This document shows positions 12,788 to 56,700 of a stretch of DNA of 64,000 bases, piece by piece. Below the pieces are notes generated by a model. It ran no database searches and was not told the origin of the DNA. It was given only the letters and a program-made list of their open reading frames with translations. How positions within the stretch are numbered: the stretch's first letter is position 1; each line of letters opens with the position of its first letter. Source of the stretch: Octopus vulgaris (taxonomy: Eukaryota); the NCBI GenBank assembly GCA_951406725.2, contig OX597816.1, forward strand, positions 100,812,001-100,876,000. Reading direction: 5' to 3'. The position numbers and the translations under genes were made by a program.

Positions 12788-15700
12788 GTAAGTTCTAAAG
12801 ATAATGATAATCCTTTCTACTATAGGCACAAGGCATGAGATTTGGGGGGAGGGGTACAAAAGCTGACATCGACTCTAGTGTTCAACTGATACTTATTTTA
12901 TCAAACTTGAAAGGATGTAAGGCAAAATTGACCTTGGCAGAATTTGAACTCAGCTACTAAGCATTTTGTCCAGTGTTCTAACTATCCTGCCACCTCACCA
13001 CCTTCTTAATAATAATAATGATAATAATAATAATTCTTCATTGGCCGCAAGAGCTACAAAAACATTTAAGACAATACAAAGACATTTAATTTTGGCATTT
13101 AAGAACAGCAACAGAAGGAAAAAGAATTATGCTTTCTCTTACTTCTACCAACTGAAGTAGTTAAGATCCTTAGATTACTCATGCCATATTTTTAGCAATA
13201 ACATCTGTTTATTCTCTTTTCATTTTCCTTTGACTGCAATCAGATCATATTCTACTAGAATATGTCGAAGTCAATACATCAGTGGTGGGGAGTCAATCAC
13301 CCTAACCATGGAATCTATACAAAGTATCTACTTTTTTGATGTTTTCTAACATATGAAGGTTCCTAATTAGAAACAATTGTGTTCTTGTTAAACTAACATC
13401 ATGGACATTGTATGATAATTATATAATGAACAGTATATCTGTTAGGTTATTTAGATATCACATATAAAATGGCTTAGAAGTCAAATTGACTGACTTACAC
13501 ATCAGAATATCCAGGTGTGTATTTTTTTCAGTTACCAATAGCAAGTTATCTTCATATACACTTTTTCTTTTCTTTCTTTCCTAACAGCAACTGAAAATGA
13601 TACCCATATTCTATTCTCATCCTTTATTTTGATTCTCAGTATGGCTATTGGTTGTGTGGTAAAGAAGTTTGTTTCACACCCACATGTTTTTGTGTGCAGT
13701 CTCAGTGTGGTACCCTAGGCAAATGTTTTCTTTTCTGGCCCTGAACCAGCCAAATCCTTGTGAGGGAATCTGGTAGAATGAAGCTGGGAGAAGCTCATTA
13801 TATATATATATCTATAGTATCCAGACAACTACCCAACTGACAAGTGCCTGACAGACAAATGCAATATATTTCATTAAATTTTGATTTTTGTTTTCATTTT
13901 GGATGAAGGCTGATGTTCTACCAGCATTTGGTTGATGATCGTGTCATTAAGTACTTGTTCAATCTTCAATACCTGAAGAAAATGCCAGATATTTGGATGA
14001 CTTGTCATTATATTCACCTGTAAATGGTTATGCCATCCCTTCAAGGAATTAATTATTTGTGGTAAATCACTACATATGCAGTCATACATGTTCCACATAC
14101 AAATAGGAAAGAGTGGGTTGCCTCTGTTAAACTGTTGTATTCTACCGATATAAGAATCTTCAAAGTAACCAATGACTGGATCTGCTTCATGGCACAAATT
14201 TTCTTATAATTGCTCAAATGCTGTTACAACATTGTCTGCTAGCGCAAAAGCCAAAGCCTTTCAACACTTGGTGGTTCTTTACTTCAGCTAAGTGATGAAA
14301 AATACAGTTTTTGAGTACAGGAAGATTCGCCCAAATGACAGATAAAGGTAATGTGAAAGTGTATGTTGGGGAGATCTATCGGGCAATTGTCCATCAGGCA
14401 ATTGCTCACCGGGCAGTTGACCTAGAACCATATATTACAAAAGATTAAGTAAACAAAGAGAGAAATTTTCATTAGGTTTCTATTTATGCCTCCAAGAAAA
14501 TAACAAATATAGAAGATTATTATTAGTTAATTTTAACAGTAAATTTTTTTATAACAACTAATTTGAATACATAAGAGTTGTTGTATTTACATATTTTTCT
14601 TGAAGTTACATGTAGAAGAAGACTTAGATGCTTAATTATATACATACATATATTATTATTGTATGTTGTGATGACCAGTGACTATCTTAAACATCAATGA
14701 GTTTCAATTGATATGTGTTTGAGATATAATGAAGTGAATTTCGATGATTGTGGATTGCACTTACTTGATTGTATCATCCATTAATTTGTTTTTGTTGCTT
14801 TTTAATTGTAATTGATGTAAGATTGAATAGGTAATGCTCACGCACATAACACATACATTTGAATTAATTTTTACAATCCAGCCATCCTTTCACACAGAAT
14901 TTCATCTCTCTGAACCAAGGACCATGAAGTGACTTGTATATAATGGAACTGTGATTATGTATATCAGGAAAAAATATATATATAAGTCAAAACAATTTGT
15001 TGGCCTTTTATGGGGTTTTTTATAGATATTTATATAATATTTTGTTGTCATATATTATATTCTTAGTATTTAATGTAAAATTGTAATATAAATAAATTAT
15101 TGGATTGTCAATAGAATATCTTTATATTTAAGTTATCTTTATATATCATCATCATTCTCATTTAAGTCCACTTTCCATGCTGGCATGAGTTGGATGGGTT
15201 GACTGGGGGTTGGCAAGCCAGAAGGCTGTACCAAGCTCCAGTCTGATCTGGCAAAGTTTCTACAGCTGGATGCCCTTCCTAATACCAACCACTCCAAGAG
15301 TGTAGTGAGTGCTTTTTACATGTCACTGGCACAAGTGCCAGTCAGGTGGTACAGGCATCGACCACGCTTGAATGGTACTTTTTACATGCCACCAGCACAG
15401 AACCCAGACAGGTAGCACTGGCAATAACCACGCTTGAATGGTGCTTATTATGTGCCACCAGCATGGAACCAGTCAACCGGCACTGGTATCGACCATGCTT
15501 GAATGTGCCACTGGCATGGGTGCCAATCAGGTGGTACTGTCATCGGCCATAACAATGGTTTCACTTGCCTCAACAGATCTTTGCAAGTGCAGTTTATTGC
15601 CCAATGATTGAAAGGTACTCTTAAATGGGCTGGTTATGGTGCACTGGCATAGGCCATGGTTAAGGACTCACTTGGTTTGGTGGGTCTTCTCAAGCACAGC

Positions 15701-15980: not shown

Positions 15981-18900
15981 ATGCATGCCAAATGAGAGCT
16001 GGAAGAAACAAGAATTTTTATTAATCACTACAATTGTTTTGACACATCTAGCATTGATTGATCTCTCATGGGTGGGATTCTTGACAACTGGTTCAGGAGC
16101 ATCTAACAGTGCAGATGTGTCTCTTTGGGTGACAAATAGATATAACTCATTAAAATAACTGTTCTGCAATGTATCTTCTCATTTCATGTAAAGCACAGCA
16201 GCAAATTAAAGGATATAGCTTCATTTATATAGAAGACAATAATGAAATATCAGATGCAATAAAGAAACAAACAATACAGCAAAAAAAGTGCATATACACA
16301 CATAACCTCATTTTAGCATCCAGTTTCCAATACTTCCATGGGTCAGAGAGGATTTTTATTAAGGCTGATTTTCTACAGCCATATGCCTTTCCTGTCACCA
16401 AACATCACCTATTTTCAATTTAGGTGATATTTCCTCATGGCCAGACATAATTTCACAGAATATTGGAAATGGATGGTATGGCTTCTATGACAGTGAGAGT
16501 TATTTACAACTGTCATGCAATATATGCATGCATGTTTGTCTTGATATCACATGATAGTTGCAAGTGAGTGCTACCATCATTCAAACTTTGCCACTCATTT
16601 CCAGTCTTCCAAGGAAATATAACTAGACAAGGTGAAATGTCACCCTTCTTGGAAACAGCTGAAAGTTGGCAGCAGGAAAAGTATCCAGTCCAAGAAACAT
16701 TACCACCACAAATTCTGTATGACCTATGCAAGCACAGAAATGTAAACATTCAAATGATGATGACAAGATATATATCTAAATAAATGATAGAAGATAGTGA
16801 TAATTGAGGTCTAATGCACCATTCATTTCTTATGACCAGTAGGTGCTGCTAAAACATGGCAGTAATAGAGTTGTAGTTTTCATAATCAAGAGTTGATAAA
16901 CTGACACAAGAATCTAAATTGCTTTCTATCTGTGGGTATGAATGCCAATTCATCATTATCATCATCATTTAACGTCCGCTTTCCATGCTAGCATGGGTTG
17001 GACGATTTTGACTGAGGGCTGGCTAACCAGACGGCCGCACCAGGCTCTAATCTTGATCTGGCAGAGTTTCTACAGCTAGATGCCCTTCCTATTGCCAACC
17101 ACTCCAAGAGTGTAGTGGGTGATTTTTACGTGCCACCGGCACAGGGCCAGTCAGGCGGTACTGGCAATGACCTCGCTTGAATTCATGTTCTACAAATTTT
17201 GAAATCTCATCAATCTGAAAATCATTTATTTCATTATAGCTATCATTTTCCACCTCTTCATGCAATACCATATTTATTCTCTGCAACGCCATCATGAGTG
17301 ATACATTATTTGCATCATGTGGAAAATTTTCCACCAATATTATCCAAATATTATTATATACAACTCACCCAAGACTAGGCCCCTGTGTAATGCATTCCCT
17401 ACAAAGGTCAAGTTCACATAAGAACTTTGCAACACAATTTCTTCACTGCAAATGGGCCTTCTCTTTTCAATGCTATCCCGAAAGAAATTAAAGTAGAAAA
17501 AGGTCCAACAACTTTCAAACGGTACCTGGACAAATTCTTCCAGGAAATACCAGATAAGTCACCTACACCTGGATACATTTCAGCCAACAACAACAACTCT
17601 TTGCTTGAGTGGCCCATGGTGTCCCAAAACAATTAATTGAAAGACTTTGCAAGGTGGTGGTATTGAGTTAGTCATGGTTTGGACCATTAATGGCCGAAAC
17701 CAATCTAAGTTAAGTTATCTAAATTTGAACAAAAGAGGGAACATAGATAATAGAAAGTTGAGTCAGATACTTCACAGTTTCATGTTCAGTGCTGTTTGTT
17801 TGAGTTCAAATGTTGCAGGATTTAACTGTATCTTTCATCTGTATGTGTGTGTGTGTGGGGGGGGGGGTATATAAATGGGAGTAATATATGGGTAAGCTAA
17901 TTAACATCTTATTTTTTTTACAGTATTCTCATTTTAGTAATTTTTAATAAGCTAACATTTTTTTCTATCATCACTATAGTTTGTTTTTTTCCTTTATAGC
18001 AATGAAAAATTGCCTTGTAATATTTCTGTTTATGTATGTGTATGTTTTTACTTATTAATTTGTGTATCACTTTGTTTGTATTTACTCTGTTCTACATTTT
18101 TTTTTATCTTTGTTCTTATCTTCTTCAGAAATATGAAGCCATTGAAGTCTGCCAGAAAAGTTTGTTTCACATTGAACTAACGAAATCAGTGGCAGATCCT
18201 GAATTTGGCTTCCGAGTGGAGGCAGAATTATCAGATCACTATGATAAGGATGATGAATTACAAGTTTATGTATGTGAGATCAAACCAGGAGGTTTAGCTC
18301 ATCGGAAAGGTCATTAGAGTTTCATCTTTTATTATTAAAAATATATATTTGTGTGTGCATCTAATATTAGCCCTTTCTTAGTCAACATATGAAAGCTATT
18401 TTAATACAATGGCTTCATGTCATTCTTCACAAGCAAATCTTGTTAATAAGAGATAATTCATCATCATCATCATTTAGCGTCCGCTTTCCATGCTAGCATG
18501 GGTTGGACGGTTCAACTGGGGTCTGTGAAGCCAGAAGGCTGCATCAGGCCCAGTCTGATCTGGCAGTGTTTCTACAGCTGGATGCCCTTCCTAACGCCAA
18601 CCACTCCATGAGTGTAGTGGGTGCTTTTTACATGCCACTTGCACCGGTGCCAGACAGAGCTGGCAAACGGCCACGGACGGATGGTGCTTTTTACGTGCCA
18701 CCGGCACAGGGGGCCAAGCGAGGCTGGCAACGGCCACGAATGGATGGTGCTTTTTACGTGCCACTGGCACGGAGGCCAGTCAGGGCAGTGCTGGCAACGG
18801 CCACGATCGGATGGTTCGCTTACTTGTCACCGGCACTGGTATCACAGCTGCAATTTCTATTGATGTTGATCGACTTCGATTTTGGTTCTGCTTTCTGATA

Positions 18901-19126
18901 TCTGATTTGATTTGGTTTGATTTTGATTGTCAATATAAAACATTTTGAATAGCTTCCGCAAATCAAAGACTAAAACATTTATTATAAAAAAAAATTTTTC
19001 AGACTAATTTCATCTAATTTTAGAGATAGAAGATCTCATGAAATGGGAAAAAGTCAAAATCAAAAGTAAAACTGAAAAACATCACAGATGCAAATAACCA
19101 ACAGATAATTCTATCAAAATACATGG

Positions 19127-19161
<35 letters not shown>

Positions 19162-19885
19162 AATGTATGTATTTTTTCAATGTGTACAAATAACATGGAA
19201 AAAATAAATAGTTACCAGGGTAGCTAAAATTCACATAAGTACCATGGATGTTACACCATACTTATAAAGGTATAAATTCCAGGGTTAAGTGGAATGTTTT
19301 TGTATAACATAAATAAATTAAGAAATGGAGTTAAACGCAGATGTTTTTCAAATCTTTATACTTCCGACATATTTTTCGAAGAAAACATTGATATTATTCT
19401 GGAGGGAATAAAAATGATGTAAATCAATGCAATCATCTTGTCAGGGAAAAAAAGAGAAATAAAAAAGCACATCAGTAAGTCATTTTAACTGAATGTGATT
19501 ACGACATATATAATGAAGGGGAACACTGGCAAGTTATTTTTTAAAAAACTAATAGATTTAATGTCAAAGACAATTTAGAGAATTGCCTTTGACATTAAAT
19601 CTATTAACATTTTCTTAAAAAATAACTTGCCAGCATTCCACTTCATCATATATGTCGTAATCACATTCAGTTAAAATGACTTACTGCTGTGTTTTTTTTT
19701 TTTTACCCTGATGGGGTGATTGCATTGTTTTACATCATTTTATTCCCTCCAGAATAATATCAGTATTTTCTTTGAAACATATGTCGGAAGTATAAAGATT
19801 TGAATAACACCTCCATTTAACTCCATTTCTTAATTTATCAATGTATGTATGTATCTATCTATCTATCTATCTATATATATATTTA

Positions 19886-19922
<37 letters not shown>

Positions 19923-22900
19923 GTGTGTGTGTTTAATATTATTTCTTTATTTCACATAAATGAAATCTATAGAGAAGTATCAAATGCCTGTATGAAAGAC
20001 ATAAACAAAATATGTAACTATTCAAAACATATAACTCAGTGCATTGCAAATTTAGCTCACTTTTGCTTCTCTTCTAATACTCTATTTAATAATATTGCTA
20101 AAATGAAATGGTGCTCAACAAAAATATTATTGTAGTTGGCATAATATCAGAGTAAATTATTATTGAAAATTAACTCTAATCCTGAACTGAAGCAATATTA
20201 GTAAGGAGGTCCTATAAGAGAAAGGTTCAAACAGTATACAGGTCCAGAGCCCAAAAAGTTGAATAAGTTATGAATATCTGTCAGGCTGTTTTTTTTTTTT
20301 AATCATAAACCCAGGCTGCTTTTAATATCAAAGAGATATGGATCCCAACCAGTCCAGATTGAGCCTATACTGTCTTACTTCAATTAGATGTCATTATTTA
20401 GACAAATGCTATCAGCAGTAGCTGAAGCAGTTTAATGATAGATTTAGACTCTTGAAGTAATAGCTTGGCCAGTATGTTTTTAGTTTCAGTGGTTATGACA
20501 CTGAACATATCTATAATCTTTTCAGAAAAAAATATGAACATTTGGTAAGAATCATTAGTTTTCATATTGTATGTGAATTGCAAATCACTCCTAAATATGC
20601 AAGTTTTAGTTGTAAGATTTCTTTCTTACTCCATTCTGTGGTTCATCTGTCATTAATGACCATGGACAGGGTTCCTCGTTGTGCACCCTACTTGAACAGT
20701 GTTGTCTGTCACTGAACAGTTTGATCTGCAAATGGCAGCCTCTTTCACAAAAGCTGCAATTGTGACTCGTTCCAGTACTGTTTAAGTTGTTGTTTTTCCT
20801 TGGTCTTGTCTCTTCAGTATAGAATGTTCAATGGGATTCAGTCCTGGGTGATATGATATGGAAGACAGGTTTTTGCCTATGCAGCATGTTTTCCCTCTCC
20901 ACACTACTGATGCAGCCAATGGAACAGGTCGGCCATTACGATTTCACACTAGCGTCAACATAGGAGTTGCCAGAATGAGGTTGTTGACAACATTGGACTG
21001 CCTCTAAGACTCCAACTCCCAATTTTTTCTCTGGATTTACTCTCAAAGTCTTCCCCACAGCTGGATATGGCCACAAGGTGGTTGGGGTTTGGAATCAGAG
21101 TTTTCCTTCTTCTAGATGGGCTGCCAGCCCCTGAGCTAATGAGCTCTATCTGCCCTGACTGACTTGCTAATTAACCTTAGCTGAGACCTGACAGGTGTCA
21201 TTATTTCAGGTCAGGGTAGACCTGGGAACAATAGTGGCTAAGAGGTGGTTCCACAGCCCTCAAAACCTTGGGATTCCCAAACTAAGGCCCCACTACAGTG
21301 TTATCTTGCCTTTTACTTTTTTCTATCTTAAACAGTCATAGTGTATTTTCAGAGTTAGTGAGAAGAGTTTGAAGAGACTCCAGCAACTGGATTAGCTGTA
21401 AATTTAATTGCATTTGGAAATAATGGAAAGTGATTATCTGTTGTCATTGGATGTATTTTAGTTTCCGGCTTCACAACAATAAAATGTAGATTTACTTGGC
21501 CGTGAACATCTGTCAAAGTATCCAGAAATAAGTTGTTTATTTCTCTTTGTATGATCAAATATATTATCTGTTTATTTCATACACATTTGGAGTTTTTATT
21601 GGAAGATAATGCATTAAATTGTTAGTATCAAGTAAAATATTGGTTTTAGTTTTATTTCATTTATTTATCCTTTATTTTATCCTTTTTGTAGTTCTTATCC
21701 TTGTTTAGTTCTAGATTAGCCCTCATCAAGCAAACCTATGATCAAAGGCATTCCAGCTGTGACTTTCCATCTTTTGCTTAACATGTCTTTTTAAGACATA
21801 GGTATGATTAGAGGGAGATTAAGCTGCTATTTTTAGCAAGACAAATGATCTTGTAGCAGTTTATCTCTTTTCTTTCAGTGGATAAATATTTTACTTCTCT
21901 TTTTTGTTTTTAGGTTTTTGTAAGTAATGGTTAAGTTAAAAACACAAGAATTCTTTATAACTTTTAAGAGGTTGTGTCATTTCCAAATTGGGCTTATTTC
22001 TGATAGCGATGTTGGTTTTACTATCATAACTCACCAGTAGTATAATTATTACAATGATGTTGCTTAACTGTTGATCTGACATTCAGGTAAGAGTGAATGT
22101 TGATATTCTCTTATTCTTATATTGTTATTTATTTTCTTTCTTTGAGATCAATTGATATGGTGTTTTTCAATAGCTAACTTGTGTATTTATGAGAAGAATA
22201 TTCATGTATATGCATGCACATACACATGTCATTAATGTGTTCAGACACACAGTCACACATTTATACATATGTATGATGACATATTTCAATCCTATAGCAT
22301 TTATAATACTTTTAGAAACATGTTTACTCAAAAATGAACCATGCTTTTTCTCTTTTTTATTAATGTATCAGATGAAGCAGAGCAGTTTGCATGACCTTGC
22401 AGGCTCTTGCAAATTAGTGATATTGGTAGCTAATGTCTATTGACCTTCAGTATGTTAATATCTATTAGGAAAACATTAATTGAGGAGGTATTGTAAAAAG
22501 ACGCAGTGATATGGAAGAATGGCTAAGATTTTAGAGTGAGATATTGTAGGACACAACAGGAATGCTTAGGATATGGATGTGTGTAAGCTTTTTCATCATT
22601 GCTTCTAAGTTTTTTTTTTTATTTTCTTAATTTGCAGGGTTGATTCCTGGGGATGAAATTTTAATCATCAATGGAAAGATAGTCTCAGAGCTTGATATGG
22701 TATTCATTGAAGCCTTGCTTCATGAATCCCATTCTTTATGTATGACGGTTCAAACCTGTCGTGTTCAGGTTCCAACTGTGGTCAATGCAGGAGGGCCGTC
22801 AGCAGATACCAATGACAGCATTATCCAAAATACCATTGGCACTCCTCCACAGCCTAGAGACAAAGCCTTAGCTGATTTGTCTGTAGGCTCTCCAGGTAAT

Positions 22901-25900
22901 ATGTTTTCCATTACATATTTCATTTTCTTTCTGGATATGTTTTCATTTGTATATTAATGTTGCTTTCTATTCATTTCACTCTTATCCTGAAGCTGCTCCT
23001 TACAGAAACAGGTGATTCAATATGTTACTTTCTATGGTGCATATTTAAAAGCTAATAATTGAACAATATAATAACACTGTTAGAGGATGAAAAGTGTTGC
23101 TACTGTAGATATAGGCTGTTTATACATTAAGCGTAAGATTCAGCAGAGCATGAAAAATAGAGGTAGAAGCTGAAAAACATTATTTAAACTAAAGTCAGAA
23201 TGAGTAAAAGACGACATGGTCAGATGAAGTGTGAATAATATGCATTTGATAAACTAATACATAAATTACAAATCACAAAAATATGTAAAATTATGAAATA
23301 TTCAAATAATATATGGAAAAAGGATTTATTATTATTAACATACCCAAGCAGAATTCCTAGAGTTAAAGGAATAACCAACTAGACATTCCACCTGCAAGAA
23401 ATAGTAGTCAAGTCCCTTTTGAATTCCATCCTGTCTTATAGCATAGATATGCTGTTCCCAAAGAAAGTACAGTACAGTCATGGTTGGAACAGCTTTAATT
23501 ATTTGTTTACTATGTCACATGAATAGATATGTACTTGATAGTCACAACTGACTTCAACAAAAACAATTGCAAAGTGATTCTAGATATCTCAGGTTTTCAG
23601 TATTTCAAGGTTTTTACTCTACCTTAATATTAAGGAGTTATTGTTGAATATATTTGGTTTCAAAACTTCTTGTTTGTCATGATAAACACAATAGTTCACC
23701 TGTTTTCAGTTTTCTCTCATTCACTATTTTATCTGTGAGTTGTATCAGCTTTAAGCCAGGTGGTTATTAAACAGGTAAATTCAGTCAAACAAAAAGACAA
23801 GACTAAGTAATGTGATACATTAGTGTACTCATTCATGTGAACCAACTAAGAATATTATTGACATTTGAAGAAAACAATTGACTTTCATAATAATAGCTTG
23901 TTTCATGTAACAGTTACTACTAGACATCTGACATGAAATGTCAAGTTTTATCGAGCAAGGTGAGAAATATCATTGGACAAAAATGGATACAATTTTTGTT
24001 CTCTTCATAATATGCACCTTAACAAATAGTCAAAATATATTTCACTCCAGCTCTTCTTTTATTTCTGTTATCATAGGTCGAGATTCCAGACAGGGCACTT
24101 TGTCACCACGAAAATCACCATTACCACCAAAGCTCTCTCCAAAAGAGATTGATGTTCTTCTAAAGGTAAATGTTATTTTTTTAACTATTTCTGTTTACTC
24201 CTCTTTTCTATTTATAATTCTGTTTCTGATTGCTTTCATCAAATCTACACAACTTGAATTATTGTTAAATGTAAATATAATAGATACTACATATTGTGGA
24301 AATGTAATGTTATGAGTGTTGTACTTCTAAGCTGGTAGATATTAAAAGATTCAAATTTTCAACTTTTTTAAGGAATGTATAGTCTTATTAAAATTGCTTG
24401 TGTGTGTGTATAGTTGTTGGTATCAAGGTATCTTTTCTATATTTACAGACTACAAACTATCTATATCCCCAAAAAATTAACTTTAGGAAGTTTTCCTTAT
24501 TGTCTAAAAAGCTACATCCTGTACACACACACATATGTAGAATAGCAATATTATCTTATTATATACATAGAAACACAAATATATATATAATAAGTAATGT
24601 TTGTTGCCACTTCAACATTGCTGTTCCATACGCAACAATGTTACCACTCTTTTTTAACCCCAGGTGAACCCATGATATGGTAAACTTTTCGTTGCTATTT
24701 CTAGCAGGTCAAGCAACTACAAAAATTGTATGTATTTGTAGCACATGTGATGGCTTGATTGTATTGTGTTTGATTGATGTGGTGCTCATGATACATTTCT
24801 TGAGATGTCTAACATCTGCATTTTGGTCTTGATAATATCAACACATAATAGACACATACAGTAGGGATATAGGTAGAGTGTATTTAGTGTGATTTCAGAG
24901 ACACCCTTATGGTAGCATGTCGTTTCATGTAAAATGAGAATATTTTTCTAGTATGGAATTATCTTCCGCACTTGATTTGTGTTTCCATGAATCATATAAT
25001 TTTGATTGAACTTGCTATAGTGTTTGTTTAGCCACAGATCAGGCCTATTCTACTCGTGGTTAAAAGTATTCCAACATTCCCAATTTTTGTTTTTTCTTAG
25101 AAATATAGAACTACATTATTTAATATGTATTTCCCGTTTTGAAGTACATTATTCTGTGATATGGAAGTTATTTGAGTGTCTACATAAAGCTTTACTTATA
25201 GGCAAATTTATAATAATGAAATATAGCCTTATTGACAGATACCTCTTTCTAACAATATAGAAAATACCAGGTTTTTAAAGGCACTACTCAGTTGTTAACA
25301 GCTATTCTCTGAAAAAGTATATATCCTATGGAACATATGTTATCAGTCTTTATGTGATGAATATGTCCTCAGTTTTGTATTATAAACTGTACAGTTAAGA
25401 GGGAAAGTTGTTTGTGTTTTGAGAATTATATCTATTCAAAGCTGCGACATTAAATCCCCTAAGACTGGGCTTTTAAATTCATTTGCAAATAAAAACTGCT
25501 AAATTCCACTCTAGGATATCCTTTAACTAATGTTTTCATTATCATGGTTTAGTAAGGTAGCAAGCTGGCAGAATCATTAGCACACCCGGCAAAATGCTTA
25601 ACGCATTTTGTCCGTCTTTACATTCCGAGTTCAAATTCCACTGAGATTGACTTTACCCTGGCCTTGTGCGAAAATTTAGAATCATTATTATAGTTTAGTC
25701 AAGAGGAAGGAAATGTGCCTATGACTTCCATAGACCCAGTGATATTGATTCCATTAGTGCACTTTTTCAGTAGTTTTAAGTTGATAGCTGCAAGTAAAGC
25801 ATGTGCAGAGAGGAATTTCCAGAAAATGTTCTGAAGATGAAGGACTTTGTTATGTTGAGGACATATCCTCACTGGGAGTAATGCTTAGTAATGGTGAGGT

Positions 25901-43000: not shown

Positions 43001-46000
43001 CTAATTGGTACTAAATGTCAACAATATAACAATAAGATATTGTCTCATCATCATCATCATCATCATCATTTAGCGTCCGTTTTCCATGCTAGCATGGGTT
43101 GGACGGTTCTGCTGGGGTCTGTGAAGCCAGAAGGCTTCATCAGGCCCAGTCAAATCTGGCAGTGTTTCTACGGCTGGATGCCCTTCCTAACGCCAACCAC
43201 TCCGTGAGTGTAGTGGGTGCTTTTTACGTGCCACCCGCACTGGTGCCAGCCAGAGCTGGCAAACGGCCACGAACGGATGGTGTTTTTTATGTGCCACCGG
43301 CACGAGGGCCAGGCGAGGCTGGCAACGAACACGAAACGGGGCGGTGCTGGCAACGGTCGCGAAACGGAAGGTTCTCTTACATGCCACCGGCACTGGTAAC
43401 ACATCTGCAATTTCCATTGATCGATTTCCATTGATCGATTTCGATTCTGATCCTCACTTGCCTCAATGGGTCTTCACAAGCAGAGTTTCGACATGCCACC
43501 GGCACTGGTAGCACATCCGCAATTTCCATTGATCGATTTCGATTCTGATCCTCACTTGCCTCAACACGTCTTCACAAGTAGAGTTTTGTGTCCCAAGAAG
43601 GGAAGGTATGCATACGTAGGCTGGCTCCATCCCATGTAGAAGGCCATGGGTTGTGGACTCACTTGTCCTGCCGGGTCTTCTCGCGCACAGCACACTTCCA
43701 GAGGTCTCGGTCTCTAGTCATTTCCTCGGTGAGACCTAAAGTTCGAAGGTCGTGCTTCACCACCTCGTCCCAGGTTTTCCTGGGTCTGCCTCTTCCACAG
43801 GTTCCCTCAACCGCTAGGGTGTGGCACTTTTTCACACAACTATCTTCATCCATTCTCGCCACATGACCATACCAGCGCAAACGTCTCTCTTGCACACCAC
43901 AACTGATGCTTCTTAGGTCCAGCTTTTCTCTCAAGGTACTTACACTCTGCCGAGTGTGAGTACTGGCATTACACATCCATCGGAGCATACTGGCTTCATT
44001 TCTAGCGAGCTTACGCATATCCTCAGCAGTCACGGCCCATGTTTCACTGCCATGTAGCATGGCTGTTCGTACACACGCATCATACAGTCTGCCTTTCACT
44101 CTGTGCGAGAGGCCTTTTGTCACCAGCAGAGGTAAGAGCTCTCTGAACTTTGCCCAAGCTATTCTTACTCTAGCAGTTACACTTTCAGCACACCCGCCCC
44201 CGCTGCTGACTTGGTCACCTAGGTAACGGAAACTATCAACTATTTCTAGTTTTTCTCCCTGGAAAGTGACAGAAGTTGGTCTCAGAGCATTTTCAGTGTT
44301 TATTGTTCCTGAGCATCTGCCACATACAAAAACCATCTTCCTAGTTAGCCTTCCTTTGACATTGCTGCATCTCTTATGTGTCCATAGCTTACACTTGGTG
44401 CATCTTATAGAGTTTCTACCTACACCTTTTCTACAGATCGAGCAGGGCCATCTACCTGAAGGTGTTTGTGATTTGTCTACCTTCCTACTGATTACGACTT
44501 TGGTTTTAGCTAGATTGACTCTGAGGCCCTTCGATTCTAATCCTTGTTTCCACACCTGAAACTTCTCCTCCAGTTCTGATAGCGACTCAGCAATTAGAGC
44601 AAGGTCATCAGCATAGAGGAGCTCCCAAGGGCATCCTGTCTTGAATTCCTCCGTTATTGCCTGGAGGACTATGATAAATAGGAGGGGCTGAGTACTGAGC
44701 CTTGGTGGACCCCTACCTCTACCCGGAATTCTTCACTGTACTCATTTCCAACCCTCACCCTACTAGCGGCGTCCCTATACATGGCCCGCACAGCTCTCAC
44801 TAACCATTCATCTATCCCTAGTTTTCTCATTGCCCACCAGATAAGGGATCGGGGGACCCTGTCGAAGGCTTTCTCCATGTCAACAAAAGCCAGGTACAGG
44901 GGCTTATCTTTGGCTAGGTATTTCTCCTGCAGCTGCCTTACCAGGAATATAGCATCAGTAGTACTTTTCCCTGGCACAAACCCAAACTGCATCTCATCTA
45001 AACTAACTCTCTCTCTAATTAGTTGGGCTATGACCCTCTCCGTAACCTTCATCACCTGGTCCAACAGCTTGATACCTCTGTAGTTGTTTGTATCTAGGGC
45101 ATCACCTTTACCTTTGTAGCAGTTGACTATTATACTGCTACACCAGTCATTGGGTATGACCCCTTTGTGTATCACCTGATTAACTATATGGGTGACTAGG
45201 CTATAGCCGACACTACCAGACATTTTGAGCATCTCTGCAGTGATTCCTGATGGGCCTGGGGCTTTCCCTGTCTTCATGCTTCTAATTGCCTTAGCTACCA
45301 CAGAACTATCAACTCGGATAGCTGGTCCCTCTGTTGGGTCAACATTCGGCAGACTCTCTTTATCCCATTCATTTTCTTCATTCAGCAACCTTTCATAGTG
45401 GCATCTCCAAACCTCTCTCTTTGCATCCTCATTTAGCGCAAGTGAACCATCTTCCATGCGAACACACTTCTCTCCTACCACATCACGATTCTCTCTCACA
45501 CACTGTCTTGCAACACGAAACACCTCCAGTCTTTGGTCCTCACGGCGCAGAACATTGGCAAATTTTTTCTTATCTGCTTCCCCTCTGGCTAAATAAACCT
45601 GTCTCCTAGCTTCTCTTTTGGCAGTCTGATACAATTCCCTGCTACCCCCATTTTTCCAGACCTTCCAAGCCTGTCTCTTTTCTCTAATAGCCCTGTCTAC
45701 AATATTGTTCCACCACCACGTTATTCTAGGTCGAGAGGGGACTTTGCACCAGCCACAGATCTGGTCAGTGGCTCTCAGCAGGTTGTCCCTTAGAAACGTC
45801 CAGCTGTCTTCTACCCCCTGTGATGCTCTATCCCCTTCTACTTCGTCAGAGGCTTCAAGTAATATGTCCCTAAATCTCTGTCCATTTGCAGGATCTTTAA
45901 GCTTCCAGATCCTTCTTCTCCATATTTGTCGTCTTCTGGTTGTCCTCCTAGTCCTGATCCTAAAGTCACTAACTACCAGTCTATGTTGTGGGGTACATTC

Positions 46001-46398
46001 TTCACCTGGGAAGGTTTTGGCATTTATAAGCAGCCATCTCTCCCTTTGCCTTGTAAGGATGTAGTCAATTTGGCTGGTATGTTGGCCCGATTGGTAAGTG
46101 ACTAGGTGGCTGGTAGGTTTCCTGAAGTTATGGTTTTTATTGTAGAAATGCAAAGACACCAGAGCTGTAGTTATAAACATGTTTTTTGGTTTCATGGAAT
46201 TTAAACTGAATTAGAAATATTTTAAGAAAAGACATAGGTGCAGCAGTGGGCATGTGGTAAGTAGCTTGCTTACCAACCATATGGTTCTGGGTTCAGTCCC
46301 AATGTGTAGCACCTTAAGCAAGTGTCTTCTACTACAGCCTCGGGCTGCCCAAAGCCTTGTGAGTGGATTTGGTAGATGGAAACTGAAAGAAGCCCATC

Positions 46399-46443
<45 letters not shown>

Positions 46444-49400
46444 TGTAATGTATGTGTGTGCAGTAGTGTATCAGTGTTTGTCCCCCCAACTTCACTTGAC
46501 AACCGATGCTGGTGTGTTTACATACCCGTAATTTAGTGGTTCAGCAAAAAAATTGATAGAATAAGTACTAGGCTTACAAAGAATAAGTCCTGGGGTCAAT
46601 TTGCTCGACTAAAGGCAGTACTCCAGCATGGCCGCAGTCAAATGACTGAAACAAATAAAAGAATAAAATAATAGTAAATTATTTTAGACTGGGAATTATC
46701 AGTTGCAAACTAAGCATTTATCAATTTTTTTTGTTTATGCATAAATGTTTACCTAGATGTTCTGTACATGTTTTCATATGTATTATTTAAGGTAACATGT
46801 AAATTGATTTCAATAACAGAATGGAAAGACACTAGAATTGTTCTTATAACCACAAATGGAATCACTTTTAGTGTTGTGTTTAATGTTCCAGAAACATACT
46901 AATTTAAATTATCACCATTTGTTATTTATGATTTCTGTACTTTTGAAGCACTACTCAACAAAGCAAATATATTTCTGTTGGTTTTGACAGATAAATTTCA
47001 TATTCATTGCATCAGTGTGTAAGCAGCTGAGTATTCCTCAGAAACTTGTATACTTAATATACTTCTCAGACAGAATCAGCCTGACATAGTGTGCGACAAG
47101 GATGGTCCTTTGAATTACAGATAAAATTCATCCAACAGGCTTCCATAAGGTTCCCATCTGCCCAATCTCACTAACAAGGCTTGAGTTGACCTGAGGCTAT
47201 GTTAACAGACACTCGCTCAAGATACCATACAGTGGGAGTGAAACCAAGCCCTTATGATTACAAAGCAAACTTTCTAACTCTTTTGGCCATTAGATACACT
47301 TGTGCACATAGACACATTTTATAACTGAGAGTATAGATGTCCAAGATGGTAGATATTGAGGTTGGTAGTTTGTCTTCTGTCACTTCCACTGTATTTTGCC
47401 CATGTCCAAGACTCTGTGACTGAGCTCACCTCTTTAAAAGTCATGCACCACTGTAAGCAATGATAACAATCTTAAAATTCACAAAAGTTTGATAGCTTTC
47501 CTGGGGACCTGCATAGGACTGTGGGAAATCACTCTAGTCTTATTTCATTAAATAACTACATGGGTCTCTAGTATCATTAGAATTTAGGTACAAACTACCA
47601 AAACCTGCAGCTATATGATCAGTACAAGACGTGTGTAAAAAAATTTTTTATAAAGATACAAAGATTTATTTAGTGTGTTATGTTTTACTATAAATATTGC
47701 AAGTACTTCCTTATTTTGCTAGCTGCATACACACTTCTATGTGAATTTAATGCTCTAGCATTATTCTCTTTTTCACTAAAGTATAAATTGGAGATGAAAT
47801 TTTCATATACGATGTTCTACTTTCAGCCGGTAGACTTGAGTGTTGGAGAACTGCAAATGTATGGGACTGTACAATGGTGCAATGCTATAGATTTCCTTGG
47901 GAAGATCAAGAAAGGGACAGACCTGGAGAATGTTGTGTTCGTTTTTAAAACTGGAATTGTCTTTCTGTGCCGTGAGAGGGTGAAGAGAAAATTGAAGAAG
48001 GTAAATAATACACTTACAATTATAATAAAAAGACAATTGACATTTTTAGAAGTCGTGTATAACAATGACTAATCCTTACTTTTTTTTAACAGAGCAGTAA
48101 CAGCCGGAATGCTCCCATGTCTGAGGGCTATGATGCCATACCCCGTTTCCGCACCCTAATCCCTGTACATGAGGTGCAAGTTGTAAGCGGCTCACGGGCA
48201 GATTGTGAGAGGCACTATTGGTGGCAGCTAATCCATTCCAAGTCTGAGGTAGAAGGCCGGCCAGAGAGGCTGTACCAATTTTGCAACTGGTAAGTTAGTC
48301 TCAATGATGTTATCAGTGATGTAAACCTGATTATATGCACTAAACTGTGTGAGACAACAGATCTGAGTGTATTATGGCAGTCATTTGCATTAAATGTTTG
48401 GTGTATATACTACCAACCCTGCTAGAAATGTATGTCACATATAAGAACTGCTACAAATAAATAGCAAGAACTGACTTTTTTCCATAAACCACTCTGATCC
48501 GATACATCACTATCAAACATTTGCATTTTTTCTTTTTGTTAGATCAGTAATTCTCAACCATATGACCCCTGGGGATCCATATAAAGTTTTGTGGGGGTCC
48601 ATACTTGCAAAATAGTAAATTGAGGATCCACAGTAGTATGTTAAGGTTCCATGAAAAACTTTTGCTTTAGGTGTATTTATTGAAAGAAACAGATTTCTTT
48701 CTCTAATGTTTTACATGATTTAACCTACACAAGTGAATGTGTGGAAAGCAAAATAGGAATTTTGAAAGAAGATTTTATAAAACTAGTTTTTAAACATTGA
48801 ATGGCATAAGAATAGTAATCAGATGGGTCCATACATAAAAAATTGTTGAGAACCACTGCCCTAGATGTTAAGTTTAAATCCCAATATTTATTGTTGTATA
48901 TAAGGTTTTTTGGGGAAAAAAATTTGACAGTAATGACAAAGAATGGAGCAATTGATGTTGACAATCTCTGGGTTCCTACAACATTTTACATTTATGAAGT
49001 GGTTTCTAATAGAAAACCTGTAACCGTTTTTGAACCAGTGTTATTAAAGAGAGACAGTGAGTGGGGCTTGTAATCATATTGATGCTAATTTAGGTCTCGT
49101 GCAAAATAGAGTTGTTTTCTTTCACTCAGAAAATTTCATGCTGCTGTTTCTCAACATCAGTTATTCCATTTTCTCTCATAATTGTCAAATTTTATTTCCC
49201 AAAAACCCTTATGAACAATAATGAATAATATGATTTAAACTTGACATCTAGGACAGTGGTTCTCAACAATTTTTTCACATATGGACCTGCCTAATTACTA
49301 TAGTATCTGTCATTATATAACATGGTGTGCATTCTATTTTGATCTCTATCCAATCTAGTTCCATTTTGTTTTGTTATGATGCTTTCTATTACTTTCTCAG

Positions 49401-51626: not shown

Positions 51627-53745
51627 GATAAAAGATATTGTTCTTGTTTTAGAGGACTGTATTGTATTATATGAAGAGGTGCTGAGCTAGAATTATGAAA
51701 TCCCTTTTCTCTGAGGTAGTATGGATTTAATGAGATGAAAGTGACAAATAGCTATCTCAGAAGAAAAATTGATATTAACTCTTTCTTAAGTGTGTGCAAA
51801 TAGAACAGACTACACTTAATCTTTAAAGAGGGTAGGTAATCTGGAAGTTGGTTTCCTTTTAATCTCTAATAAGATGGTTCTTTTTTATTCTATGAAAAAA
51901 TATCCCTAAATTATTCATTTTTTTTTTACTTTTAACCTTGGCAGCAAAATTTATGATTCAAGTCTTAAGCGATGATTATGTCAAAAATAAGTTAAATTGA
52001 ATTAAGTTTTTGAATGTTAACTATGATAAAATAATTCTTAGAAAACTATTTTCATGTTTAGCAGAAGAAAAAGATCATTATTATTAGTGGTAACAATACC
52101 TAATATTTCACAAACACAAATGAAACTACTTTATTTCAATGATGCTATACCATAAAACTTCAATGAGTTTTTAATTGTGCAGTGGTTCTTTAAAATTGAC
52201 TGCTCTCTATTTATTAGCATCATCTCACAATATTCCTACTGATTTATTTAATATATCTTTGTCAGATTCCTTAAGTAGAATAGATAAATAGCCTGGAAAA
52301 TAGATGTTGAATGTAATAAATATCAAATTGTTGATATACTAAATGGAATGAAAAATCCATTCCTTATATATTCTTAGATTAGATTTGTACTGATAGACTT
52401 GATATAAATTAGAGTTTGTAAAATGGAAATTTGCCACAGATCAGAGACAAGAGTTAATTCCATTTTGCTATCTTAAAATCAAAATATTTTTTTGAGTTTA
52501 CAAAAGTACAATTAATCTTGTATTAATGCTATGATAAGAATAGTATTCACCTCTAACTGAAGGAGTCTCTATGCAGTTACTCAGCCTGTTAGAAATATAA
52601 ACCAAATTTCTCAAATCCACATCCTACTTACTATAACATAGAAAGGATATACTGACTAATGTTATCCTGCATATATAAAAAGATTGTCTAAAATGGAACA
52701 TCTTTGATCATAAGTCTACTCAACAAGGTTTGAGCTGGGACTAAATACAGTAACAAAATAATAGCTTTTAAAATATGTATAAAATTGATACTGCATTAAT
52801 TTTTTAAGTTATCAATAGGAACATTTTTTAAAGCTTATAAATATATGTTTGGCAATTTTATTAATTAATTTCAATAGATTTACGAATATTGAAAATATCA
52901 GATAGAAAATACTTTTCTCACTTAATTATTTCATATAGCATATATCTGGCATAGATTAAGGATATATGAGAAATGTATGCATGTGTGTATTGAAATAGCT
53001 AATAGAAACACTAGAATAATTACTGCTGAGGTAAAAGTGTTTTATTCTAAGGGAGAAATGAGAATTGAGAAAGATAAGAAAAATTATTTTATATATCAGA
53101 TGTTGTTGGTAAAAAAGGATGGAATTCATAACATTAAAACTATCGTTTTCTGGAACAAACCATATAGTAAGGAATACCAAAATACCTAAAACAGCCTGGG
53201 AAAAAAATTATTAGCAGAAGCCACTCCATATTTCTATCAAGACGTTGCCTGCATCTATTAAATATTGATTTCGAAAAGAAAGAGCAAAATGAAAATAACG
53301 TCAAGTGATATGCAAAAATAGCTTTCATATTTTTCACAAGTCATTCTTAAGCTAAAACTGATAATTCATTGACAATTCTAAAACAAATTCAGATAATGAT
53401 GGGCATTGTTCCTGACGCCCCTGGCATTAAAAACGTTTCAAAGCGATTTTTGATAGTTTTTTTACTTTTTTTTCACAAGGGACGTAACTTAGCATGTTTC
53501 TCTGATTTAATTTTATAAACTTTTCTTTGCTAAGCTGCAATCAAAAGTGAAAATCTTAGAATAATAAAATTTGTTTTCATTGTAGATATCTAAAATAAAA
53601 GTTCTATGTGAGAAAATTAGAATTATTTAAAGAGTAATGCATTTAGTTGGTTAAAAAGATGTTCATACATTGATGATAGATATTGTTTTACAATTATAGC
53701 TGCTATTCTTTTATACTAGTTTCTAATTGATAATTTGATTTATCA

Positions 53746-53799
53746 ATCTTGATAATCTAGTGAGATAATTTATCAATTATCTCACTAGATTATCAAGAT
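53746..53799. repeat. Perfect 25-bp inverted repeat with 4-nt loop
   Basis: atcttgataatctagtgagataatt-tatc-aattatctcactagattatcaagat. Confidence 0.95.
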
Positions 53800-56700
53800 A
53801 TATAATTCTATAAAATTTTAGAGAATAAAAGCAATGAAAACTTATGAAAAATAGGTATGGAAATTATTTTTGAAGGTTCATTCTTCTTAATCAATGCTGA
53901 TTATTAAAAACCAGGAGAGAACACTGCTGTTACAAAACCAGGTAACAAAATTATAATTTCAAGGAAACTCAATAGAAAATGAACAATAATAAGATTTAAC
54001 ATTAATTTGAAAGAGTAAATTACATATAGTTTTAATCCAATGCAAGATTAAAATATCATTTTACATGTTACTAGAAATTTTTGTCTAACTTTAGATTATT
54101 CTTTTATTAGTTCCAACCAGGTCGATGTGGTCATGCTGGAAGTATTGTCAAAGTCTAATTGAATTCCTGATATTTTATTCTATGCTATTCTTGTATGCTC
54201 AGAATATTTTGTAAAGAAATCGAAACAAGTGATTTGTATAGAATAATCAATGTTGGTTCAAAACTTGGACTTGAAATAAAAAAAGAAATATCACTAAAAT
54301 ATCTTACATTTAAAACTGATACCAAAACAGAACAATATCTAAAAATAAATAAACATTTTTACTTTACTATTTTTATGATATAATTGACATGGTAAGAAAT
54401 TTTAGGTTTTTCTCCAAATATTCTGAAGTTATTAAATGTAGAAAATTGTAATTAAGGTATCCCATGCATTAACTCAGTAAGAAATAAACTATAAATCAAA
54501 CATTTCAAACACTGTTTAAAAGAAGTAAATAAAATAAAATATATGTTATTTAAGGTAGTCAGGAGATGATTAAAAGATGTTGTATGCTTATGTATTTTTA
54601 TTGTGTTGGTGAGTAACTTATTGATTTCAGTTGTTCTTCATTCATGCTATTGGATAAATGATAATATTTATAATTATTAATCAACTTTAAATACATGTGT
54701 AAATAGACATGCATTTTCAAACAAATTTTAGTCTAATACCTATATACTGAATATATTACAAAGTCTATGTTAAAATGTTTCTTGTTCTAAATAATAACTA
54801 AAACTTTCTGTCAATATTGCTAAAGCTCCACTGCAGTAATGAAGGACTATTGTGACTGTGAACATTGTTCCTTGAAGTACATGAACTGCATAAAACATAA
54901 AACAAATGTGAACTGCATAAAACAAAATACAAAAATCCCTGTTATTATTGAGTTTAAAAAAGAAAGGATACTATGTTTAAAAGATAAAAATTCAATTGTT
55001 TAAAAAACTGAAAATAAATAACAAAATCTCTAAAAGTATTTGTTATTCCATTGTCAATAAAGCATGATTTTTAAGAGAGATATGCATGTATTAAAAGAAA
55101 AATTAACATAGCATACATCCTAAAAGAAGCAAAGACAAGCAGGAAAGGAAAACATAGCTAAAATGAAAATTTTCTTTTAATTATCATTTTTACATAGTTT
55201 TGTTTTGTTTTGTTTTAACTCTGAAAGAAGATTTACCAATATAATAATGATAATGAGTAAAGAAATGTTTGGTTGGATTTTATTGCCCTTTCCTACACAC
55301 CTATCTTCATAAAGATGAATTCCTTTTCTGCTTACTTAAATATCCTTCCCTAAAATTTTTCCTTATTTCCCTCCTGAAATCTAACTTCAATTTTTATTAA
55401 TTTTTCGTACAGGAATCAGTGTTGATTTTGAAAGCCTTAGGATCTTTCGTAGACATATTGTAATAAAAGTATATTTCTGCTTTGCAACTCTTTAAAAGTA
55501 CAATAAAATGTATTCTAAACTGAAAGACTATCTCACAGTGTATGGTTAAGAGAAGGAAATATTTCTTAAATATCCTCACTCTTCCACTTGGTGTTCGTGT
55601 AAACACATTTCTCCTGCCACAGATTACCTGGCGTCATTAAAATATATTCAACCCAAATATGCACATGCATGAACCTGATTATGTTCACATTTCCCATTTC
55701 AATGTTCTATAAATGCATGGTTACCCTAAATTTAAATAAATTTTCCACTAAGAAAGTATCATTTACATTAAGGTTTACTATTGCTGTTTCTAACTTACAA
55801 CTAGCTTTAAAGTTTCAAATCCCTCATTAGTAACACTTTATCCTGTAATTATTGCTGTCATCAATATCAAATATTAATAATATTATAACTAACTAAATTT
55901 AGTCGCTATAAAATCTATTAACCATGAATGCTAATGCTAATTTTAAAAATTAAAACAAAAGTTATCAATAAATTGAAATAGAAATAAAATTTACAAACTA
56001 CTTAGTGAGTTTCTTTGAAATTATGATGTAACTAATAAACATTTAAGTGCATTTGAAAAGTAAAAATCAATTGATATGATGTTTCTTAAAAATATTTTAC
56101 ACCTCTAAAAACAGCATGATTTCACTTATTCTTGTTTTGCACTAACCTTATTTTGTGCTCTGGCACATTCCACCTGTTACCTGGTGTTAAAGCAGTTTGT
56201 CATTAGTTTAGTAATATATTAAATTTTGTTGATGTTTGATCCTTCTACCTAAACTGTACAATTGTATATTTTATACTTTTTTTAATGCCTTGTTTGCCAT
56301 ACAGAATATCAGATGTTAATGACATACTGATTGCAAAAAATGATGCCTTTATATATACGTCATTCTTATTATCAGAATTAGCATCGACTAGAAAGAAATG
56401 GGGGAAGATTTAGATTTGAAATTATTGTTAAAAAACAAAAACTTTTTTTTTTTGTCAGAGCAGATTATTTTGATGAGTTGTAGTGCACATGAGCACTATA
56501 TACAATAATTTTATTATTATGATTATTATTATTATAAAACAGAGAAAAAATTTGTTTGTTTTTTTAAAAACAAAAAATTGAAAGTTGGATATCTCGTTTT
56601 CCTATACTTAAATAAGAATAGCTGATTAAAGCATTGTTTGTTAATGTAAGAACAAGAGAAAATACTAACGTTGGACTTAGGAACAACATTAACTCGATGA

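Follow-up and report, generated by a model that had tools for sequence, protein, structure and literature searches.

Our analysis of a 64-kb stretch of Octopus vulgaris DNA (64,000 nucleotides of contig OX597816.1, hereafter the window) indicates that an intron of a Tiam/sif-like gene very probably carries a single decayed insertion, in which two 5'-shortened ends of a hammerhead repeat family lie head to head in a microsatellite target. The insert is likely the product of a Penelope-like reverse transcriptase/endonuclease and is predicted to be catalytically dead. A first-pass annotation, made from the letters of the window, had placed two mirror-image minimal hammerhead ribozymes of a Penelope-derived element at 19362-19789.

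Layout of the insert and its host intron

The insert spans 19173-19839, more than the interval first reported, and consists of two head-to-head arms of about 403 and 259 nt (Table 1). The palindrome, too, is wider than was noted, running from 19307 to 19844, and the left arm extends on from it to about 19173. When the arms are aligned to each other, 23 of 255 columns differ, plus three indels. In each arm the hammerhead-sense strand points outward, which makes the two a head-to-head pair, and the whole palindrome taken as RNA is predicted to form one long hairpin (-321.7 kcal/mol, z -39). The window contains no second copy of the arm.

Table 1. Features of the insert and of the intron that holds it (positions in the window)
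Feature	Position	Strand	Remarks
Left direct-repeat copy, 11 bp	19162..19172	+	End of a (TA)n(CA)n microsatellite; this context weakens the duplication reading
3' tail, about 134-140 nt, left arm only	19173..19306	-	Covered by family contigs; left end placed from the direct repeat
Left palindrome arm, 5' end at centre	19307..19575	-	
Left type I hammerhead motif	19361..19449	-	Antisense to host transcript; 5-bp helix I and arm II intact; G8A, C15.2A
Spacer at head-to-head junction, 5 nt	19576..19580	.	
Right arm, to the family's common short end	19581..19839	+	End set independently by family contig ends at 19838-19839
Right type I hammerhead motif	19703..19790	+	A9G, A10.2G, C11.1U; helix I broken at 19705; nominal cut after 19785
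Right direct-repeat copy, 11 bp	19840..19850	+	Runs into a TATG/TATC/TA microsatellite
Host intron, 4.3 kb, GT..AG, phase-compatible	18310..22637	+	Tiam/sif-like RhoGEF gene; splice sites read from sequence

The two arms are flanked, as a unit, by an exact 11-bp direct repeat. We regard it as a candidate target-site duplication, a reading that its letters fit though they lie in microsatellite DNA. With this repeat, and with family ends that run into (TA)n, the insert matches the short target duplication and the microsatellite target of a Penelope-like element. It also has the form of an inverted, 5'-truncated head-to-head copy with a tail at one end, as such elements do, although the tail exceeds the published length. 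Of the family's two ends, the right arm has the short one, and it is the left arm that carries the tail.

The position within an intron of a Tiam/sif-like gene, already proposed in the first-pass annotation, is upheld by Pfam matches to RBD, RhoGEF and PH_Tiam1 in other exons and by phase-compatible splice sites, the GT at 18310 joining the AG at 22636-22637 in phase. The intron splits what appears by eye to be a PDZ domain; a Pfam search of either flanking PDZ half gave no match. For the host, the insert would mean a predicted duplex of about 260 bp added to the Tiam/sif-like pre-mRNA, which could be a substrate for RNA editing.

The hammerhead motifs and their repeat family

The motif letters that had been quoted are all found where they were placed. 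In the plus arm C3 is 19708, with CUGAUGG at 19708-19714, GAAAC-AUAU-GUC at 19774-19785 and ggaa at 19786-19789; in the minus arm C3 is 19444, the motif opens with CUGACAA, and GAAAA-AUAU-GUC ends at 19366. Neither copy has an intact type I core, the plus copy having A9G and the minus copy G8A together with C15.2A. The sense copy does differ at A9, as had been said, and it is damaged further by C11.1U, A10.2G, two changes in the partner of CAUUG and an A at 19705 in helix I. In the left copy that helix, UUUCC/GGAAG, is whole; the right copy has it broken at 19705. Helix III consists of A15.1-U16.1 plus one C-G pair, and with the closing AUAU it forms the self-complementary ACAUAUGU. The palindrome is intact at 19777-19784 in the right copy; its duplex is calculated at -7.0 kcal/mol, and that of the left-copy variant at -1.4 kcal/mol. 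A one-pair helix III with a palindromic loop is a feature of the minimal hammerheads of Penelope-like elements (PLEs), and the tiny helix III that the first-pass annotation described is the majority state of the family. Its cut site after 19785 in the sense copy agrees, nominally, with the geometry.

The word 'minimal' has to be given up, since arm II spans 59-60 nt. Beyond a base helix GA(A/U)GA/UCUUC come an internal loop rich in U, the CAUUG/CAAUG helix, then a large loop and finally a distal hairpin, which has 6 bp at this locus and would have 7 bp with the family's G at 19751. The stem II earlier given as cauugau/aucaaug stands for the left copy only (19424 is private to it and 19391 a minority letter); the family keeps just CAUUG/CAAUG. 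Metazoan PLE hammerheads, in the portions of Cervera and de la Pena (2014, PMC4209133) that describe them, share with our motifs the type I order, a helix I of 4-5 bp, G10.1-C11.1, the one-pair helix III with its palindromic loop, a dispersed multi-copy family and opposite-strand pairs 100-700 bp apart. Their arm II, however, is a helix of 7-8 bp, and a base between 9 and 10.1 is left unpaired. Here arm II takes up 59-60 nt, including internal loops and a 6-7-bp hairpin at its distal part, and G10.1-C11.1 follows directly after A9. Folded alone, the left copy is predicted to form arm II with pair probabilities of 0.76-0.97 and, in part, helix I with 0.42-0.53. For the right copy, alone or within the palindrome, the pair probabilities of helices I and II are 0.00.

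How much of this could be expected by chance can be judged from the window itself. Rfam gave no match at gathering score across the whole 64 kb, and its 32 matches within 18800-20400 at E up to 10 include no hammerhead. A relaxed hammerhead descriptor found 4 matches; 30 shuffles averaged 0.77 (range 0-5). A descriptor requiring a 4-bp helix I found 2, against 0.1 in shuffles; the plus arm fails the stricter form. From the window alone, then, the motif is modestly above chance, and this is no proof of a ribozyme. We nevertheless count it as real because the majority letters of its family restore the broken core positions.

These letters come from contigs of public runs aligned to each arm at 80% likeness. 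They are depth-weighted and reference-biased, their columns are unlinked, and values for the left arm come from the 40 of 95 rows listed. The family is multi-copy: each presumed-DNA run yields 1,125-2,067 contigs, and the runs bear four organism labels. The left arm and its extension attract 1,583-2,067 contigs per run in all four runs, one for each of four organism labels, and the right-arm motif 1,125 and 1,156 in two DNA-type runs. In two runs guessed to be RNA, 87 and 8 contigs resemble the family at the right-arm motif, from which neither transcription nor cleavage of this locus follows. In the two DNA-type runs the majority letter is A9 at 97 and 99% of depth, A10.2 at 99 and 97% and C11.1 at 58 and 80%; in the four runs, among the rows listed, it is G8 at 86-90% and C15.2 at 94-99%. 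The majority state is therefore a CUGANGA / GAAA / NUH core in type I order. It had been predicted that a consensus of the two arms would rebuild a full core, and the family does so at A9, G8, C15.2 and C11.1. A family consensus without the CUGANGA/GAAAC-GUC core had been named as grounds for rejection; on checking, the majority letters carry the core complete. Behind 19413, the loose contig ends have the consensus CUGAUGAG on the ribozyme strand in all four runs. The majority letters allow the helices to pair, and a minority change from G-U to A-U at 19722 (10-23% of depth) is compatible with pairing; no compensatory pair was seen among these unlinked columns.

The contigs also show where the family ends. 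Behind 19838, 45 and 40 contigs of the two DNA-type runs enter (TA)n, which marks a short end. A long end is seen in contigs that run on into the tail, 27 and 19 of them behind 19839 and 16 and 23 behind 19844. The short end recurs on the left arm as (TA)n before 19309 in four of four runs. Opposite-strand joints occur at varying places in other copies (4 of 15 and 1 of 4 joints among those listed), and because their places differ between copies we take the fold point not to be fixed. At 19391, 19400, 19475 and 19504 both arms share letters where, among the rows listed, 60-95% of family depth differs. Such common letters fit an origin of both arms from one template, although later gene conversion could give them as well. 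Summed contig depth drops towards the centre and across the cut site, and depth provides no ranking of the parts of the stretch.

Two local features of the family deserve mention. Within the tail, contig depth at 19201-19241 far exceeds that on either side, with many contigs diverging beyond 19241, which suggests a motif common to a larger related subfamily. Just 3' of helix I, at 19793-19797, a subvariant with three linked-looking changes makes up 10-34% of depth in the two DNA-type runs; it would reshape the helix I bulge.

Origin of the insert and rival explanations

From its layout and the literature, a Penelope-type reverse transcriptase/endonuclease is the most likely source of the insert. 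The earlier identification of an inverted pair of Penelope type agrees with the arrangements in the available text of PMC3846280 (head-to-head inverted pLTRs, a one-sided tail, target duplications of 8-10 bp) and PMC8557442 (an inverted 5'-truncated copy, a tail, a bias to microsatellites). We picture the event as follows. The endonuclease would nick AT-rich DNA on both strands, at points about 11 bp from each other, and reverse transcription would be primed at two internal sites of the element RNA, which correspond to the short end (19839) and to the tail end (19173); cleavage of both strands and two internal start sites of reverse transcription are described in excerpts of PMC11167929. Each cDNA would come to an end some 130 nt upstream of the ribozyme core, the two would be joined at the centre, and both arms would afterwards decay neutrally. 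For the ribozyme of the parent family we would expect cleavage in tandem or multimeric RNA, as a dimer formed through ACAUAUGU. Parts of PMC4209133 report weak dimer cleavage by minimal hammerheads with palindromic loops, and opposite-strand pairs of minimal hammerheads 100-700 bp apart; the dimer model is treated in the review sections of PMC6765202. In the excerpts of PMC11167929, a PLE hammerhead is assisted by protein, and its activity is dispensable for insertion in vitro.

The inverted pLTRs of endonuclease-bearing PLEs, as the available parts of PMC3846280, PMC8557442 and PMC11167929 present them, resemble our insert in their head-to-head arms, the tail at one end, two alternative 3' ends, a short target duplication and an AT-rich microsatellite target. 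They differ in having tails of 30-40 nt, against about 135 nt here, and this locus has no ORF or direct pLTR pair. The length of the tail counts against a Penelope origin, as do the microsatellite DNA in which the direct repeat sits and the outcome of protein searches with two tail reading frames, which matched no protein and linked no reverse transcriptase or GIY-YIG sequence.

Could the palindrome have some other history? An ordinary single insertion might have been turned into a palindrome later, by fold-back repair or replication, or a MITE or foldback DNA element might carry the motif by accident. A near-perfect palindrome with a spacer of 5 nt and arms from one template is what such a history would leave behind. 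It would not readily account for unequal arms of which the shorter stops at the family's own common end, for a direct repeat that surrounds both arms jointly, or for fold points that vary between copies in the joints listed, and we consider it improbable. A MITE or foldback element with symmetric, fixed terminal inverted repeats was set aside as a class: the arms measure 403 and 259 nt, fold points vary and there are two alternative ends. That the hammerhead likeness itself is a chance product of an AT-rich palindrome seems scarcely credible. The silence of Rfam, the up to 5 matches of the relaxed descriptor in shuffles and the weak fold z-scores (-1.5 left, +0.1 to +0.8 right) would suit chance; the letters of an independent family restore exactly the four broken core/closing positions, and in light of them the chance reading appears already largely refuted.

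Very unlikely, too, is the proposal that the sense copy works, or once worked, as an intronic ribozyme cutting the host pre-mRNA, with inactivation selected by the host or a switch provided by the antisense arm. The helix III palindrome is kept in the sense copy, the insert does lie in an intron, and 4 of 16 core-plus-closing-pair columns differ between the arms (p = 0.044, for a set defined post hoc that includes one CpG site). In the strict core, by contrast, 2 of 12 columns differ, against 21 of 243 elsewhere (p = 0.30), and for the whole motif the enrichment of differences gives p = 0.23. Mutation is not clearly enriched in the core, so neutral decay suffices. Moreover, the antisense copy is equally damaged, and of the differences that the rows listed allow to be polarised the left arm has 8 to itself and the right arm 7. 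Transcription reaches the left arm first, and this arm is predicted to pair with the entire motif; since the sense copy would thus be locked in the long pre-mRNA hairpin, selected inactivation is unnecessary. We therefore drop the first-pass reading of the A9 change as an inactivation in the sense of a selected event, given a core p of 0.30, an antisense arm similarly decayed and a sense copy predicted to be sequestered. The dimer of these two copies has to be dropped as well: the motifs lie on opposite strands, neither has a dimer partner on its own strand, and they cannot dimerise with each other.

Returning to a decayed Penelope-type insertion, we predict that neither copy at the locus would cut. 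A9G and G8A would be expected to inactivate the hammerhead core. Our literature search found nothing relevant on A9G and G8A hammerhead mutants; in the available text of PMC11167929 single changes at C3 or G8 (C3G, G8C) abolish cleavage by a PLE hammerhead, G8A not being among those tested there.

The parent element and other repeats of the window

What kind of element left these ends behind? We put the chance that the parent was a non-coding passenger of retrozyme type at about even, and consider it more likely than the pLTR of a coding element. By the same mechanism of insertion, the parent could possibly have been a coding Penelope-like element with an ORF that opens within the ribozyme or beyond it, as Poseidon_Ac and Adineta Pen2a have, a reading to which we give well under an even chance and which is a sub-case of our preferred explanation, its share being counted within it. 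Excerpts of PMC11167929 describe an ORF that starts in stem II and a coding tail, and in those of PMC3846280 the first 12 codons lie inside the pLTR. Here, however, all three ribozyme-sense frames of both arms contain stops, across the motif and the tail. Two tail frames, with X at stops, yielded 0 matches in a search of 1.84 billion representative proteins and 0 among longer proteins (10 candidates), weak evidence against a coding parent as the query is decayed and has 73-103 residues. Motif scans of metagenome contigs returned 0 loci.

Metazoan non-LTR retrozymes are likewise small, apparently non-coding, AT-rich repeats with type I hammerheads, and their movement by PLE enzymes has been proposed, according to the accessible portions of PMC7229834 and bioRxiv 10.64898/2026.07.22.740005. 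They are defined there by tandem monomers and circular RNA, whereas this locus holds one partial unit per strand and no tandem monomers. The locus thus behaves as a Penelope-mobilised inverted end, and we file it neither as a retrozyme nor as a proven pLTR. We entertain, as a speculation with well under an even chance of being right, a more specific parent: a non-coding retrozyme with a conserved 59-nt, two-tier arm II, common to several related species, whose twin priming starts at two fixed sites of the RNA, separated by about 135 nt. If this were true, the long arm would be a protein-docking or tertiary-contact module of a protein-assisted ribozyme, and the locus one old footprint of an element whose priming-site gap is four times the published Penelope tail.

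Among the papers listed on hammerheads in octopus Penelope elements and on cephalopod retrotransposons, none concerns this family by its title or the start of its abstract; the giant squid genome paper and supplements may hold such families. So far as the main texts at hand go, published descriptions are departed from only in the long arm II and in the long tail, and these too may already be contained in supplements. The locus itself is a remnant, predicted to be dead, with a layout known since 2013-2014, and it is a further example that speaks for two-site priming by enzymes of Penelope type. Of the family's features, the long arm II alone merits bench work, which would be better done on a young, intact copy.

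The window holds several other repeats. A compact hammerhead-like descriptor match at 24937-24968 on the minus strand, mismatched at two core positions and with a helix I of 5 bp, is not distinguished from chance. The 72-bp palindrome at 53737-53808 (89%) was searched for an exact hammerhead half-site and has none, and the same holds for a MITE-like inverted pair of 154 bp (82%) at 48812-48964 and 49148-49301, separated by a 183-bp spacer. In a later intron of the host gene, 43662-46210 on the minus strand is a large remnant of a reverse transcriptase of non-LTR type, which we take to be RTE-like; it has two overlapping frames (513 and 357 codons) with RVT_1 matches and a weak PHD/C1-like match, and no relation to the hammerhead insert was seen. 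Finally, a dispersed repeat family of 75-85% identity with a 63-bp internal tandem unit occurs at 18458-18884, 15146-15475, 16950-17182 and 43051-43449, among other places.
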